DNA of 32,000 nt. Origin: Methanocaldococcus jannaschii DSM 2661. GTDB taxonomy: Archaea; AGJL01; Methanococci; Methanococcales; Methanocaldococcaceae. Where the stretch lies: positions 60,001 to 92,000 of the forward strand of contig NC_000909.1 of the NCBI RefSeq assembly GCF_000091665.1, written 5' to 3'. The notes under the pieces were generated by a model that saw nothing but the letters and a program-made list of their open reading frames with translations, made no database searches and had not been told where the DNA came from. A program made the position numbers and the translations under genes. Shown here piece by piece: positions 5,514 through 31,476 of the stretch (position 1 is its first letter; the number at the start of each line of letters is the position of its first letter).

Positions 5514-5861
5514 TTATTTTTCTAACTCTACAACATCAACGGGCTCTAATGGAATATTTTTTAAAACTTTTCCAATTGTTGCCTTAGCTATTCTAATAGC
5601 ATGTTCTGGACTTTCAGCATTAAATACCTTCATAGATAGTAAAACACCAACCAAAGCTGTTCTTGCTACAACTAAAACACAATCTACCAACTCTCCACAT
5701 TTCGGACAGATAGTTAATCCAATGTCTATATCTACATAGTTCAATCCTTCTTTATTCAACATCTTCCCTATTTGTGATATAGTTACGCTTATAGCGTCTT
5801 CAACATCATCTACGTTTCTCACAATATATGCAGCTTGTAAAGTCACATGATAATTCGGCAT
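5514..5861 (-). CDS. Small conserved archaeal protein (UPF0212/DUF555-like)
   Basis: 115 aa with an ATG start. The N-terminus [14 protein letters not shown] and the motif [10 protein letters not shown] match my recollection of the UPF0212 family. Function is unknown. Confidence 0.6.
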
Positions 5862-6006
5862 CTTATCTCACCAACTACCAAAAATCTCGTTTTATCTAAA
5901 ATCTTAATTTTTATTAATTACCTTAGTTACGGCTTCTATTATTTAAAGTTATTGTTTGATAAATTTTAAATAATTCCTTTATCCACTCATAAACTTAAAA
6001 GGTTTT

Positions 6007-6909
6007 ATGGGGATGGACATGATAGAGATGATTGAAAAGGCAGAGATTTTAATGGAAGCTCTTCCATTCATACAGAAATTTTATGGGAAGATTTTTGTCA
6101 TAAAGTATGGCGGGCATGCGATGATTGATGAGAAGGCAAAGAATTGGACTGCTCAAGATGTTGTTTTGTTGAAGTATGTTGGAATAAATCCAGTTGTAGT
6201 TCATGGTGGAGGTCCAGAAATCAACAAAGCAATGGAAAAAATGGGGAAGAAACCAGAGTTTGTCCATGGGTTGAGAGTTACTGATGAAGAAACTTTAGAT
6301 ATTGTTGAAATGGTTTTAGCCGGAAAGATTAATGGAGACATTGTCTCAAAGTTATCAAAGTTTGGTGGAAAGGCTGTTGGACTATCTGGAAAATCTGGAA
6401 GGATAATTTTAGCCAAGAAAAAATTAAAGAAAATAAAAACTGAAAAAGGGGAGGAGATAGAGGTTGATTTAGGTAGAGTTGGAGAGACAGTTGAGGTTAA
6501 TACTGAACTATTAGAGATTTTGATAAACAACGGCTACATCCCAGTTGTATCACCAATTGGTTTGGATGAGAAGGGAGAGGCATATAATTTAAATGCCGAT
6601 ACCGTTGCTGGAGACATAGCTGGAGCTTTGAAGGCGGAGAAGCTTATTTTAATAACAGATGTTGATGGAATAATGGATGATATAAATAATCCAGAGACGT
6701 TGCATAGAAAATTAACAGCTTCAGAACTAAAAGAAATGATAGAAGATGGAAGAATAAAGGGAGGGATGATTCCAAAGGCTGAAAGTGCCTTATATGCCTT
6801 AGAGCATGGAGTTAAGAGCGTTCATATAATAAATGGAAAGATTCCTCATGCTTTGTTGTTGGAGATATTTACAGAGGAGGGTATTGGGACGATGATAACA
6901 AGAGATTAA
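6007..6909 (+). CDS. argB: Acetylglutamate kinase
   Basis: The motifs VIKYGGHAM, VVVHGGGPEIN, VSPIG, AYNLNADTVAG, LILITDVDG and GGMIPK are the hallmark AAK-family ArgB motifs. The first ATG was used; the exact start is uncertain (several in-frame Met). Confidence 0.92.
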   Translation: MGMDMIEMIEKAEILMEALPFIQKFYGKIFVIKYGGHAMIDEKAKNWTAQDVVLLKYVGINPVVVHGGGPEINKAMEKMGKKPEFVHGLRVTDEETLDIVEMVLAGKINGDIVSKLSKFGGKAVGLSGKSGRIILAKKKLKKIKTEKGEEIEVDLGRVGETVEVNTELLEILINNGYIPVVSPIGLDEKGEAYNLNADTVAGDIAGALKAEKLILITDVDGIMDDINNPETLHRKLTASELKEMIEDGRIKGGMIPKAESALYALEHGVKSVHIINGKIPHALLLEIFTEEGIGTMITRD

Positions 6910-6965: not shown

Positions 6966-7214
6966 ATGCTCAATATAAACAAAGAGATAGCACAAATAGA
7001 AACTGAATTGAATGAATTGAAAAAATTGAGAGATGAAATCTCTGAAAGGATTGAAAAATTAGAAATAAAGTTATTAAAATTGAAAGCATTAGCTATTCCA
7101 GAGGAGGAATTTGAAGAGGATTATGAAGAAATTATAGAAGATGTTAAAAAATCTCTGGATAAAAAAGAGACTGTGCCAGCAGAAGAGGCTTTGAAAGAAT
7201 TGGGATTATTATGA
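6966..7214 (+). CDS. relB: RelB-like antitoxin (archaeal type, coiled-coil and acidic)
   Basis: 82-aa acidic helical protein. Its stop overlaps the downstream ATG (ATGA at 7211-7214), and its partner is a clear RelE-fold toxin. Confidence 0.7.
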   Translation: MLNINKEIAQIETELNELKKLRDEISERIEKLEIKLLKLKALAIPEEEFEEDYEEIIEDVKKSLDKKETVPAEEALKELGLL

Positions 7215-7483
7215 AGTTTAACGTTGAGATACATAAAAGAGTCTTAAAAGATTTAAAGGATTTGCCTCCCTCAAACTTAAAGAAGTTTAAAGAACTAATA
7301 GAAACATTAAAAACCAATCCCATTCCAAAAGAAAAATTTGATATTAAAAGATTAAAAGGCAGTGATGAGGTTTATAGAGTTAGAATTGGAAAATTTAGAG
7401 TTCAATATGTTGTTTTATGGGATGATAGAATAATAATAATTAGAAAGATAAGTAGAAGAGAAGGAGCTTATAAAAATCCCTAA
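7211..7483 (+). CDS. relE: RelE/ParE-family mRNA interferase toxin
   Basis: 90 aa. The sequence ...KRLKGSDEVYRVRIGKFRVQYVVLWDDRIIIIRKISRREGAY is the typical RelE C-terminal beta-sheet signature. There is a 4-nt overlap with relB. Confidence 0.85.
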   Translation: MKFNVEIHKRVLKDLKDLPPSNLKKFKELIETLKTNPIPKEKFDIKRLKGSDEVYRVRIGKFRVQYVVLWDDRIIIIRKISRREGAYKNP

Positions 7484-7561: not shown

Positions 7562-8010
7562 ATGATTATTCTTTTAGATTTAAATGGAACAATAGCTACT
7601 GATGGGAAGATAAAAGAGGGAGTTAAAGAGAGATTAACTATTTTAAAAGAAAGAGCTGAAATATATATTTTATCGGCAGATACTTCGGAACTTTAAACGA
7701 TATTGCTAAAAGCTTAAATGTCAAAGGTATGAAGGTAGATAGAGAGAAATACGGCAGTGAAAAGATAGCTAAATTAAAAATTTTAGAAGAGTTAAAAAAA
7801 GAAAATCCCAACAAAAAAATTATTGCTATAGGAAATGGAAATAACGATGAACTATTATTAAAAAATGCTGATTTAGGCATCTGCGTTATTGGAGATGAAG
7901 GAGCTTGGAGTAAAACGATATTAAGCTCTGATATAGTTGTTAAAGATATAAATGATGCTTTAGATTTATTGTTAAATGAAAATAGATTGAAAGCTACAAG
8001 TAGGGATTAA
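7562..8010 (+). pseudogene. HAD-superfamily / soluble P-type-ATPase-like phosphatase (COG4087-like), split by a 1-nt frameshift near 7684
   Basis: Frame 2 from ATG 7562 gives MIILLDLNGTIATDG...ILSADTSEL* with stop 7694-7696. Frame 1 is open from 7660 and continues ..FGTLNDIAKSLNVKGMKVD...AIGNGNNDELLLKNADLGICVIG... to 8010. HAD motif I (DLNGT) is in the first part and motif III (GNGNND) in the second. One extra T in act-tcg would restore ADTFGTLND. Confidence 0.8.
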
Positions 8011-8012
8011 AA

Positions 8013-9089
8013 TTATAGCAATCTCTTTATAGCATTCCAGACTAAATAACTTTGAGGCTTTAAAATTCTCTTTTGCGGATTTAAAAATAAAATATTCTCC
8101 TTAACTAAGTAAACATAAACTGGTGTTGGAATATCTTTCTTAGGTATCTCATACTTATCCTTAAATAATCTTAATGCTTTAATGATATCTTCTTTATTTA
8201 TCTCAATAACTTCATTTCCAACCTCTACCCTTGGCTTTGAATAATCTAAAATTTCTAAAAACATATCTAATTTAGAAATCTCATCATTTAACAGGTAATC
8301 TAAAACTTCCTTTAAATCTTTAAAATTGCTTTCTTCAACAACATATTTTATATCCTTTGGCTTCCCTCCTACGTAATTATAGATTAACTCTTTATCTTCA
8401 TTAGTTAAGCTGATGTTATTCTCTTTAGCTAAAAAATCCATAAACTTTAAGGCAGTTTCTTTATCAAAATCATCCACCAATAGATACTTAGCCCTACCAT
8501 CTAACATCGCCTCATTATAAACCCTCTCTATAAACAAACTATCAGAACTTAAACAAAAAACATGACATAGATGCTTATGCTTTGTTAGAGAAACAAAATA
8601 ATTAAACAACTCATAGATTAAGAATCCATTAATCTTCATATCACCAATCTTTTGTAATTCATCTATAATTAAAATTGGCTGTTTCCCTTCTTTTTTAATA
8701 TCCATTAATACTTTAGTTATATATCTAAAGACATTTTTAGTTGTCTTTTTCTTCAAGATTTCTTCTAATGTATTTTTTGGTGCTGGAATACCACATAGAG
8801 AAGGAACGTCCTTTATCAAACTCTTTATAATTTCTACTGGCTTTTTATTTCCCTCATATTCTTCAAATAAAACTTCAATGAAGTCGTCATACTTAGAAAT
8901 AAAAATCTCCCTTAAATCAAAATAAAACACAACATATTTATCCTTGTCCAACCTATTGTTAATAATCTCATTGATTAAGGCAGTTTTACCGCTATTTATA
9001 GGGCCGTAGATAAAATAAACGTCATCTGGCTCTCTATTTAATATATGAAGTATTTCAGCAATCTCCTTTTCTCTATCAAAGAATTTCAT
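8013..9089 (-). CDS. Archaeal AAA-type ATPase (Arch_ATPase / COG1672-like), paralog 1
   Basis: 358 aa. It has FFDREKEI, a Walker A (YGPINSGKT) and a Walker B (ILIIDELQ). It is about 55-60% identical by eye to the neighbouring gene. GGGGTG lies upstream of the ATG. Confidence 0.8.
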
Positions 9090-9119: not shown

Positions 9120-9170
9120 CTATAATAACTTTTTTATAGCATTCCATACTAAAAAACTTTGAGGCTTTAA
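9120..9170 (-). pseudogene. Orphan duplicate of the last ~16 codons of the 9233-10324 ATPase gene
   Basis: The minus strand reads ..[17 protein letters not shown] (stop = cta 9120-9122). The 38 nt at 9133-9170 are identical to 9255-9292 inside the intact gene. No upstream ORF is attached (stop at 9180-9182). Confidence 0.8.
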
Positions 9171-9242
9171 AGGAAACTTTTAGTAAAAGTTTCATCAAAA
9201 CTCGTCCATTAAGTTGGGACTTTCAGTCCCAATTAATGTCCA
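9171..9242. repeat. Modular palindromic repeat element separating the intact gene end from its orphan duplicate
   Basis: Hairpin gaaactttt (9173-9181) / aaaagtttc (9185-9193). Linker gtttcatcaaaa. Hairpin cattaa-g-ttgggact (9207-9221), loop ttc, agtcccaa-ttaatg (9225-9238). The same module order occurs at 30907-31004. Confidence 0.75.
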
Positions 9243-10324
9243 TTCAGTAATTTCTTTATAGCATTCCATACTAAAAAACTTTGAGGCTTTAATGTCCCTT
9301 CTATTGGATTTAAAAACAATATATTTTTCTTAACTAAAAACTCTCTAATATTCTTAGGTATTTTTATATCTTCAATTTCATAATTTTCTTTAAATATCTT
9401 CAATGCATCAACTATTTTGTTATAAAGCTCTTCATCATCTTCTTTAACATCCTCTAAGAAGTATTTTAGCTTTTGGATTTCTTCTTTGAGCATGAACTCC
9501 AAGATATCCTTTAACTCCTTACCAAGCTTTAGCTTAATAATCACATCATAAACATCCTTTGGCTTCCCACCAACATAGCTATAAATTAGCTCCTTCTCAT
9601 CCTCAGAAAGTTTCCTGCCTAAAATATCCTCAGATAAAAAATCCATAAATTTTAAGGCAGTTTCCTTATCAAAGTCATCCACTAATATATAGTCAGCTCT
9701 CCCTCTGAGTTCAGCCCTATCATAAACATACTCAATAAATAAACTATCAGAGCTTAAACAAAAACAGTGCGTTATATGCAATTCCTTAGTCAATCTAACA
9801 AAAAAATTAAATAAATCATCTATCAACTCTCCATTAGATTTCAATCCTTTTAATCTCTGCAGTTCGTCAATAATAATTACAGGCTTTAGACCCTTTTTAT
9901 TCATCTCTCTAAAAACTCTCTCCAAGTATCTAAAAACATCAAAACCCTTCTGTTTGGATAGAATAACTTTTGCCAAGTCAGAAGGGAGAATAATGCTCTC
10001 ATTGAACAGTTTTGCTGTTTTTTCTATAAATTTGATGCCTTCAACTAAAACATCAGCATCTTTTACCATCTGTTTAAATTTGTTATCCTCCCTAATTTCA
10101 AACATTATATCAAAAAAATCACTATAAGATGATATTCTAACTCCTCTTAGATTATAGTAGAAGATTCTATATTTTTTGTCATCTTTTAATCTGTTGATTA
10201 TCTCCATCATTAGAGTAGTTTTCCCACTGTTTATAGGGCCGTAGATGAAGTAGATATTATCTGGAGTTTCATCCAAAATGCCCAAAATTTCATTAATCTC
10301 CCTCTCCCTATCAAAGAATTTCAT
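9233..10324 (-). CDS. Archaeal AAA-type ATPase (Arch_ATPase / COG1672-like), paralog 2
   Basis: It has FFDREREI, a Walker A (YGPINSGKT) and a Walker B (VIIIDELQ). The track start 10330 is TTG; ATG 10324 gives MKFFDRE, as in the paralog. The last three codons and the stop (NGH*) are encoded by the palindromic element arm ttaatgtccatt. Confidence 0.8.
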
Positions 10325-30786: not shown

Positions 30787-31041
30787 GGAAACTGTTAGGT
30801 TTTCATTACCGAAGCTACGCTTTGGTTAAATAAATCCTAACGGATTTGTAGCTCTTCGCTCCGCTCCGATTAAATGAAAACTTTTTGAGTTTTTGTAGCC
30901 AGAATTGAAACTTTCTGTTTCATCAAAATTTTTATGAGCATCCCTCGTAGAAAGGGATTCCAACCTATTGGACATTAATTGCCCCTGTAAGGGGCAACTT
31001 AATGGACATGTGATATCCCAATAGGAGGCATCCTCCTATGG
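30787..31041. repeat. Cluster of at least 8 short GC-rich hairpins (modular palindromic elements and/or a structured ncRNA) filling the intergenic region
   Basis: The hairpins are: ggaaac/gttttc (30787-30804); accgaag/ctttggt (30808-30826); aaatcc/ggattt (30832-30847); gaaaact/agttttt (30876-30894); gaaac/gtttc (30907-30921); atccct/agggat (30940-30958); cattaattgcccct/aggggcaa-c-ttaatg (30973-31004); ccaataggagg/cctcctatgg (31018-31041). By hand count, GC is about 47% over 30938-31041. Confidence 0.7.
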
Positions 31042-31044
31042 TAT

Positions 31045-31476
31045 TTAAATCATTCTTATTGGTCTTATAGCACCACAAGCCATACATTTGAGTAAATGAA
31101 CTCTTCCCTCCTTAATAATCTTGGTATCTGGCTTACCGCACTCTCTACAGATAACATACTCCCTCAAGAAGTCATTAATTCTTGATTTTAATAACTCTGG
31201 GCTGATTCTTCTCTGTAAGATTAATCTACCTCCCTCTAAGTTACCAGCACTACCAGTCTCTTTTAAAAGATACTTAGCAAAGAATTCCTCATCTCTATTA
31301 ACTGCCTTAGCCAACTCTCTAAAGTTTCTTATTATTGTTCTATTTCCTTCTATCAAAATCTCAATTTCTGGAAGTTCAAATCTATCTTTTTGGAAAACGT
31401 AATCTGGAATCTGACTTCTTGCTCTCTTTAATAATGCCTTATAATCATAATAGTCAATATTTTCAAGGTCGCTCAT
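31045..31476 (-). CDS. eif2b: Translation initiation factor aIF2 beta subunit
   Basis: 143 aa. It has YDYKALLKRA, RFELPEIEILIEGNRTIIRNF, and a C-terminal zinc ribbon CRECGKPDT...CMACGA. This is the canonical aIF2-beta/eIF2-beta core. Confidence 0.92.
   Translation of the reverse strand: MSDLENIDYYDYKALLKRARSQIPDYVFQKDRFELPEIEILIEGNRTIIRNFRELAKAVNRDEEFFAKYLLKETGSAGNLEGGRLILQRRISPELLKSRINDFLREYVICRECGKPDTKIIKEGRVHLLKCMACGAIRPIRMI

Follow-up and report, generated by a model that had tools for sequence, protein, structure and literature searches.

A hairpin cassette and displaced gene ends at the 3' termini of PF01637 ATPase genes in Methanocaldococcus

In a stretch of 32,000 nucleotides (nt) of the Methanocaldococcus jannaschii DSM 2661 chromosome (NC_000909.1, positions 60,001 to 92,000; hereafter the window, 31.6% G+C), the last 16 codons of an ATPase gene of family PF01637 (gene 2) occur twice, on either side of a 72-nt mosaic element that combines a pair of short palindromic modules (H2 and H1). 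The feature is not a one-off, given that nine loci representing seven PF01637 gene lineages in several Methanocaldococcus genomes carry the same cassette, and it is not a transposase target duplication. We consider it somewhat probable that the cassette was copied onto the 3' ends of different PF01637 paralogs by homology-templated recombination, and it has probably spread between strains as well as between paralogs.

A gene end duplicated around a hairpin cassette

The ATPase region was read on the minus strand. Names beginning with L denote fetched loci or contigs, and those beginning with P denote proteins. The features of the locus are as follows.

8013..9089, minus strand: ATPase gene 1, a tandem paralog with a KRLL* end and without the cassette (open reading frame (ORF) list and alignment)
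9120..9170, minus strand: orphan copy O, 16 codons plus TAG, read as the native 3' end that gene 2 has lost through displacement
9171..9244, minus strand: whole cassette, consisting of the NGH* tail, H2, spacer GAG, H1 and junction CT (sequence comparison)
9173..9200, minus strand: hairpin H1, TTTTGATGAAAC-TTTTACTAAAA-GTTTC (folds)
9204..9244, minus strand: hairpin H2, AATGGACATTAATTGGGAC-TGAAA-GTCCCAACTTAATGGAC, stem at 9214-9232 (folds)
9233-9244, minus strand: codons for N, G and H and the stop TAA, forming the left flank of H2 (reading of gene 2)
9233..10324, minus strand: ATPase gene 2, 363 amino acids (aa) from ATG, with PF01637 ATPase_2 and a PF21690 MJ1010-like second domain (families taken from the identical protein in L001)
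9245..9292, minus strand: copy B, the 16 terminal family codons inside intact gene 2 (sequence comparison)

Orphan O encodes the same 16 residues as copy B and closes with its own TAG stop, and the start codon of gene 1 lies 30 nt downstream of it. An earlier note, made from the sequence of the window, had described the last 16 codons as occurring twice, 122 nt apart and with an exact 38-nt core, and all of its sequence statements hold. Positions 9133-9170 are identical to 9255-9292, and a 36-nt probe gave 3 matches at ≤3 mismatches where shuffles led us to expect 0. The KKLL codons of the two copies differ at 4 nt, all of them synonymous changes, as the note had said. The intervening 72 nt, which it had read as two hairpins, do form two hairpins whichever strand is folded (z = -4.9 and -5.2; an equally good fold was seen in 0 of 200 shuffles). 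Gene 2 reads on past copy B into AAT GGA CAT TAA, so that the palindromic element does provide the NGH* tail and the stop codon.

The GTTTC end of H1 lies 2 nt from the start of the orphan. No homology was found past 9170, upstream of orphan O, and H1 stands directly upstream of the orphan in every related locus. The last codons of copy B (…ATTACTG, 9245-9251) are part of a tract common to most cassette loci, and gene 1 shares 36 of the 38 core bases with the repeat. By analogy with the MJ0147 locus described below, we interpret orphan O as the probable displaced native 3' end of gene 2. The window itself was matched at 99.98% identity by contig DUJR01000013 of GCA_013329685.1.

Recurrence across ATPase paralogs

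The lineages that bear the cassette are window gene 2, MJ0147 (L035, L210), P0078 (L010), the L013 gene, P0049/P0079 (L204, L206), P0067 (L207) and P0032 (L209). The junction between H1 and the orphan, GTTTC(C/T)TT|TAAA, is the same in eight of the nine loci, and a full 16-codon orphan with its stop is present in six. The L209 orphan is reduced to its last five codons, the L204 contig ends just inside the orphan, and the L205 contig ends before its nested insert does. Immediately after the orphan stop the sequence is unrelated between loci (Fer4, an IS607-like element and other genes).

The C-termini of the best 120 homologs of gene 2 bear out the suggestion of the earlier note that ...LL* is the ancestral type of terminus: ~100 of them end exactly 16 residues past LKPQS (...K[KR]xL*), and ~10 end ...LLNGH or ...LLNGC, including MJ_0147 of M. 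jannaschii. When the C-terminal box is removed, the NGH proteins do not group together, and for most of them the closest relatives have no such ending. The nearest relatives of gene 2 (60-63% identity) are without NGH, the cassette-bearing NGH gene of L013 and window gene 1, which has no NGH, are most closely related to one another (85% identical), and the NGH protein P0049 has the same body as P0079.

The cassettes are far more alike than the genes to which they are attached. Cassette cores differ between loci at 0-5 of 75 nt, in part through a flipped loop, and sliding identity between cassette-bearing loci is 90-100% in the box (copy B) and cassette as against ~50-75% in the gene bodies. 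Between L010 and L013 the last ~110 nt are almost identical, the shared tract reaching ~60 nt deeper into the gene. Overall, the left edge of the tract that loci have in common is not fixed but falls anywhere between ~+40 and -60 nt with respect to the box, which is what homologous exchange should produce.

Within loci, in contrast, copy B and the orphan differ at 4-12 of 48 nt across six loci (5-12 in five of these), and the differing codons comprise 24 synonymous and 6 conservative non-synonymous changes. Serine codons switch family (AGY/TCN), between AGC and TCA, in L010, L013, L035, L206 and L207. Given this coding-type divergence, both copies evolved as working gene ends, and because the copies differ more than the near-identical cassettes do, they are older than the arrival of the cassette in five of the six loci compared.

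These comparisons divide the two options that the earlier note had offered for the origin of the repeat, an insertion with duplication of ~50 nt of target or a templated repair or recombination event. A single insertion at this locus is not supported in the form proposed, given the presence of the cassette with ...TTA CTG AAT GGA CAT TAA behind at least seven ATPase genes and the divergence of the copies in five of six loci, and the comparative data favour the second option. The note was right that the arrangement is atypical of transposase insertion.

Several observations concern individual ATPase loci. In L206 (3090-5637), a 1-nt deletion in an A run of the in-gene box makes the protein end AIKDY* and not AIKRLLNGH*. 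An IS607-like pair, comprising a serine recombinase with a MerR-type helix-turn-helix and a 425-aa ORF, lies ~270 nt past the L206 orphan, and both genes are outside the cassette. In Altarchaeum (L023 11163-11315, L024 11188-11340), an ATPase paralog has its first 20 nt (TGAATTTTTTGACAGGGAAA, MNFFDRE) doubled, 133 nt apart, just past another ATPase gene; a similar event may here have affected a 5' end. A close MJ0147 relative (P0025, L037-L039) is located between KwaA/KwaB (Kiwa) and HsdR in a type I restriction-modification cluster. PADLOC searches with the ATPases returned weak matches only (mad8, PDC-S27), and a defence role is not established.

Three arrangements at the MJ0147 locus

The orthologous MJ0147 locus, with the gene order TruB, ATPase, Fer4, GTP cyclohydrolase III, has three arrangements in three lineages. 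In L040 the gene has a normal ...KRIL* end (…CCGCAATCATTTTTAATCTGG…), followed by other hairpin modules and a 25-nt orphan (NAIKRVL*). In L035 a native-type box with the NGH tail is followed by a long cassette and an orphan ending ...KRVL*. In L210 an L010-type in-gene box is followed by the basic 72-nt cassette, and the orphan carries CCACAATCATTTTTAATCTGG…AGAGTGCTATAA, a sequence with which the working gene closes in both L035 and L040. The L210 orphan is therefore the native end, and the view of the earlier note that the orphan is a former gene end finds support here.

Some candidate loci were set aside. P0045 and P0025 are not syntenic counterparts of MJ0147, M. jannaschii P0002 is not syntenic as an empty-site ortholog of gene 2, and L013 has only the ATPase gene in common with the window and so is not an orthologous locus of gene 2. 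L003 was rejected as a second context for gene 2, because it is chimeric between the window locus and that of MJ0147: at 1558-1640, the window VWA gene and gene 2 are joined to an MJ0147-type cassette, orphan, Fer4 and GTP cyclohydrolase III through a 41-nt shared stretch. This join is either an assembly artefact or a real recombinant.

Anatomy of the cassette and its modules

The order common to the nine loci is ...ATTACTG AAT GGA CAT TAA, then H2 (TTGGGRC-loop-GYCCCAA), CTTA|ATGGACRAGTTTTRATGAAA, H1 (…CTTTTACTAAAAGTTTC) and (C/T)TT, with small tail variants in L209. Compensatory changes are present in three of eight H2 stem pairs. The window cassette has the basic 72-74-nt form without nested inserts, shared with L013 and L210, and it matches the L013 cassette with an nhmmer E-value of ~4e-26.

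Other copies contain nested inserts at two fixed points, namely a 97-nt unit and arrays of small hairpins. The 97-nt unit has perfect 16-nt terminal inverted repeats (TAACCAATTATCAAAG) and is found in either orientation (opposite in L035 and L010). Its site is constant, in the right arm of H2 at AACTTA|ATGGAC (L035 3312-3410, L010 1229-1332, L204, L206, L207, L209), which means that one site was hit by insertion more than once or that the segment can invert. In L204, L206, L209 and L035, two to six small hairpins with variable stems lie between GATGAAAC and TAACTTTTAC. Their punctuation is fixed (…GCTA…, …TT(C/T)AAC), and their number differs between alleles of one gene (L204 vs L206).

No second whole cassette was found elsewhere in the window, which contains single modules only. 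These include one further cluster:

30850..31045, no strand assigned: second intergenic cluster, packed with modules of this family (H1 variant, H2 variant, CCAATAGG…CCTATGG hairpin)

The H1 variant lies at 30907-30924 on the minus strand, the H2 variant (30969-31011) has its stem fully swapped to GCCCC/GGGGC, and the CCAATAGG…CCTATGG hairpin is at ~31013-31040. A ACAAAAACTC…GAGTTTTTGT hairpin in the cluster resembles those nested in the L035 cassette. No direct repeat was found flanking the cluster. Besides this H2 copy (window 30966-31012), H2 is found at L006 6134-6180 and in all cassette loci. In L006, H2 and CCAATAGG-type (H4) modules at 6137-6211 are in frame (…GTLIGAESPNLMDVGYSNRGFPLWVE…) within a 357-aa ORF (5807-6880), to which the palindromic insert contributes ~25 residues.

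Reading the UGAUGA of H1 as part of a C/D box or kink-turn was rejected, as there is no D box. Rfam returned nothing meaningful, either at the gathering threshold across the whole window or in scans of the cassette at permissive E-values.

H1 beyond the ATPase cassette

A pattern scan of metagenomes for H1 yielded at least 120 stretches; the frequencies given here describe the 120 that were fetched and are not genome-wide. The fetched loci contain 121 non-redundant H1 copies among the matches listed, and H1 occurs in 10 Methanocaldococcus-type places. TTT precedes the match in 99 of the 120 stretches, though it was absent from the pattern, which argues for real homology.

For 12 of the 121 modules among the matches listed, the 24 nt after GTTTC recur within 450 nt upstream (≤450 nt) with at least 19 of 24 matches, compared with two modules in a mirror control, both in tandem low-complexity sequence. 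It is invariably the orphan that adjoins GTTTC, and the opposite side of the element is variable. Repeat lengths at H1 are 14, 15, 16, 20-22, 24-29, 38-48 and ~85 nt. The H1-linked repeats outside the cassette loci are as follows.

L012: tRNA-Val 3' end, 22 nt exact, ~31 nt in all
L011: degenerate ATPase end, 29 nt
L007: intergenic, 14 nt
L006: first 26 codons of an AcnX-like gene, ~85 nt, ~80% identical, differences mostly synonymous
L045: tRNA-Asn 5' end
L073: tRNA-Leu 3' end, three stacked copies
L047: last nine codons of a radB-like gene, TGA vs TAA stops
L088 and L065: further H1-linked repeats

H1 is also found inside predicted tRNA introns (L041, L042, L049, L124) at position 37-41, where 0-4 nt separate its GTTTC end from the 5' exon. 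In these introns (tRNA-Ser, tRNA-Gly and tRNA-Arg, at the canonical position) and also in L101 and L132, H1 runs antisense to the H1 of the ATPase cassette. The 3' end of tRNA-Glu directly adjoins H1 in L081 and L102. No transposase or integrase was linked to the modules, no protein family occurred within 3 kb of more than seven of 99 loci, and no enzyme acting on H1 or H2 was identified among the genes near the modules in those loci.

Some process is making hairpin-linked duplications anew. Tentatively, and with more doubt than confidence, we suggest that H1 may be a widespread archaeal mobile or recombinogenic hairpin, whose GTTTC end would be joined precisely to its target by a one-ended, polar process that leaves repeats of variable length (14-85 nt) and so restores tRNA and protein genes at their ends. 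This unit would also be the core of tRNA introns at the canonical position. If this were true, one undescribed mechanism would underlie intergenic palindromes, the replacement of gene ends and tRNA introns alike.

The TTTTGATGAAAC part of H1 (window 9185-9200) is similar to GATTTTCAGATGAAACG, the S. solfataricus mini origin-recognition box for Orc1-1 (PMC3089459), and the host genes are AAA+ ATPases. This likeness may well be coincidence.

Neighbouring genes in the window

A ParE-type toxin pair (6966-7483) adjoins the ATPase pair. At 7562-8010, a HAD-type hydrolase is represented by two ORFs (44 and 93 aa) compared with one 149-aa gene in L001. The window and L001 differ by one gap over 13.4 kb, and the split may be a frameshift or a sequencing error.

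Proposed route and alternative explanations

In the route that we infer, the unit transferred would be the H2/H1 mosaic fused to the codons ...L-L-N-G-H-stop, and the C-terminal coding box, 48 nt long and very conserved (LKPQS[FY]L[VI]WNAIK..L), would serve as portable homology. In the donor the box flanks the insert on each side, once as the in-gene copy and once as the orphan, and would supply that homology. A cassette-bearing paralog or allele could then act as template for repair or recombination of the end of another gene. The product would consist of the gene body, a chimeric box of native and donor sequence, the universal NGH* tail, the hairpins, and the resident's own box and stop as an untranslated orphan. 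Synthesis-dependent strand annealing, Campbell-type integration of an excised circle and gene conversion would each give the same product. At the window locus, the crossover would have fallen within 10 nt of the 3' end of the box, leaving 38 identical bases.

Several points weigh against this route. A simple templated repair would give an orphan whose 5' part is derived from the donor, yet copy B and the orphan in the window are identical over 38 nt, which would reflect a crossover at the extreme edge, later homogenisation or duplication in place. No empty site for gene 2 was found at this exact locus: a genome scan gave no full-length relative above 61% identity, and the best candidates for a close ortholog are only 59-61% identical. 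Direct repeats flank H1 also at single-copy targets (tRNA-Val, tRNA-Asn and tRNA-Leu ends, the radB-like and AcnX-like genes), and spread between paralogs cannot account for these. Strong selection on the cassette could mimic recent spread. Finally, metagenome contigs account for several of the loci, and L003 is chimeric.

A local duplicative insertion, which refines the main reading of the earlier note, is one that we think unlikely. Here a hairpin element would have been joined by its H1 end inside the gene, whether by staggered breaks, by target-primed copying or by template switching at the hairpin, with duplication of ~40 nt of target and with the ...LLNGH* tail brought by the element. 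The 38 identical nucleotides in the window, the excess of upstream recurrences at H1 over the mirror control, the 14-85-nt repeats at single-copy targets (L012, L045, L073, L011, L007, L088, L065, L047, L006) and the constant position of the orphan on the GTTTC side, with the other side variable, all fit such an event, and as hairpin-linked duplications do arise anew, one may have founded the cassette. At the other ATPase loci, however, the copies are 5-12 of 48 nt apart, with switches of serine codon family, and the cassettes are near-identical; most cassette loci share the tail codons TTA CTG, and the tail therefore cannot be native to every gene. In L047 and L006 the copies of single-copy genes also differ mostly synonymously (TGA vs TAA in the stops), which points to recombination between diverged alleles. 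No enzyme for such an insertion was found among the neighbouring genes. Site-specific integration, in which the copies would be the left and right attachment sites (attL/attR) of a miniature or decayed integrative element whose own site (attP) carried an alternative gene end, strikes us as improbable. It would account for a replacement terminus supplied by the element, for the orphan as native end, for the same logic at tRNA 3' ends with stacked repeats at the L073 tRNA-Leu, and for repeat lengths that vary by target as attachment cores do. The insert is, however, only 51-290 nt long and without a recombinase gene, no integrase family recurs near the modules, and one cassette family would require many attP sites; the variable left boundary of the shared tract, moreover, fits homologous rather than conservative exchange.

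Vertical inheritance of the whole arrangement (copy, cassette and orphan) from an ancestor of many paralogs, maintained by concerted evolution or selection and mostly lost by deletion between the direct copies, appears very improbable. Losses would be easy, because deletion between 48-nt repeats cleanly restores ...LL*, and the compensatory changes in the H2 stem suggest constraint. Old orphans would nevertheless have decayed, and those observed keep their frames with mainly synonymous changes; the cassette is far more conserved than its host genes, three lineages have three arrangements at one orthologous locus, and a crude comparison already suggests that cassette divergence does not track that of the gene bodies. 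We give scarcely any credence to the possibility, raised in the earlier note, that the orphan is the last 51 nt of a deleted third tandem paralog. Genes 1 and 2 are indeed in tandem, and L209 likewise has a gene, cassette, orphan and next ATPase in succession, but the GTTTC(C/T)TT|TAAA junction recurs in eight of nine loci before unrelated genes, and homology is lacking upstream of the orphan. Homology-templated copying between paralogs is the reading we favour.

A tiny non-coding hairpin cassette rewrites C-termini across a whole paralog family and leaves datable fossils of the old ends, which on this reading form a direct record of recombination between paralogs, and probably strains, in hyperthermophilic methanogens. 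For annotation, MJ0147-type proteins that end in NGH have an element-derived tail. The precise-ended hairpin, the one-sided variable repeats at tRNA and gene ends and the occurrence in tRNA introns together point to an archaeal DNA transaction without a known enzyme.

Comparison with known systems

A literature search found no description of the duplication. The cassette departs from miniature inverted-repeat transposable elements, as its ends (AATGGACATT… and …AAAGTTTCC) are not inverted copies of one another, and 16-nt terminal inverted repeats are confined to the 97-nt insert nested in L035 and L010. Nor is there a short, identical target duplication of fixed length (14 to ~85 nt, with copies differing by ≤25% and cassettes by ≤7%), an autonomous element or a linked transposase. 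Also rejected were a diversity-generating retroelement (the changes are synonymous and of all base types, and there is no reverse transcriptase among called neighbours) and, on anatomy, CRISPR/Cas1-type off-target integration, casposons, integron attC sites, IS200/IS605 and IS91, on the grounds that there are no terminal inverted repeats, no fixed repeat length, no A-specific changes and no linked gene, and that the insert is the wrong size for a spacer.

Prophages and islands integrate at attachment sites in tRNA genes, and phage 21 and e14 integrate into icd of E. coli. Such integration likewise produces a hybrid gene ending in element sequence, with the native end as an orphan repeat on the far side and copies that differ largely synonymously. 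The direct repeats and the gene regenerated by element sequence are shared with the cassette loci, as are the regenerated tRNA ends in L012, L045 and L073. In contrast to prophages and islands, the inserts here (51-290 nt) contain no ORF and no recombinase gene, the left edge varies where a single fixed crossover core would be expected, and one cassette is found in many paralogs. Gene conversion or homing in multigene families is similar in that an insert spreads through flanking homology with variable tract ends. No homing endonuclease is present here, however, and a single target segment has homology to the insert's flanks on either side, so that a duplication is created.

Repetitive extragenic palindromic (REP) sequences of enterobacteria, their bacterial interspersed mosaic elements (BIMEs) and REPINs are likewise intergenic mosaics of hairpin units with variable order and orientation and co-varying stems. 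Unlike REP/BIME, the present modules have neither a visible transposase of the REP-associated tyrosine type (RAYT) nor a GTAG/CGTC tag, and we know of no REPs that leave 14-85-nt target repeats or replace gene ends. Rickettsia palindromic elements (RPEs) and coding repeats that resemble miniature inverted-repeat elements similarly add residues without destroying the protein; RPEs are inserted in frame inside genes, with no orphan of a displaced gene end.

The MJRE1-3 palindromic repeats of M. jannaschii, in the account attributed to Suyama, Lathe and Bork (FEBS Lett 2005), are reportedly mostly intergenic, with a few in frame inside genes. H2 and H1 resemble them as short palindromic repeats of the same genus with many copies per genome, some of which are coding without breaking the frame (H2 in giving NGH*, and L006 6137-6211). 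To our knowledge, the MJRE description includes no duplicated gene end, shared replacement C-terminus or one-sided flanking repeat. The H2 and H1 modules belong to a repeat family that is common in Methanocaldococcus and, judged by kind, is most likely of MJRE type.

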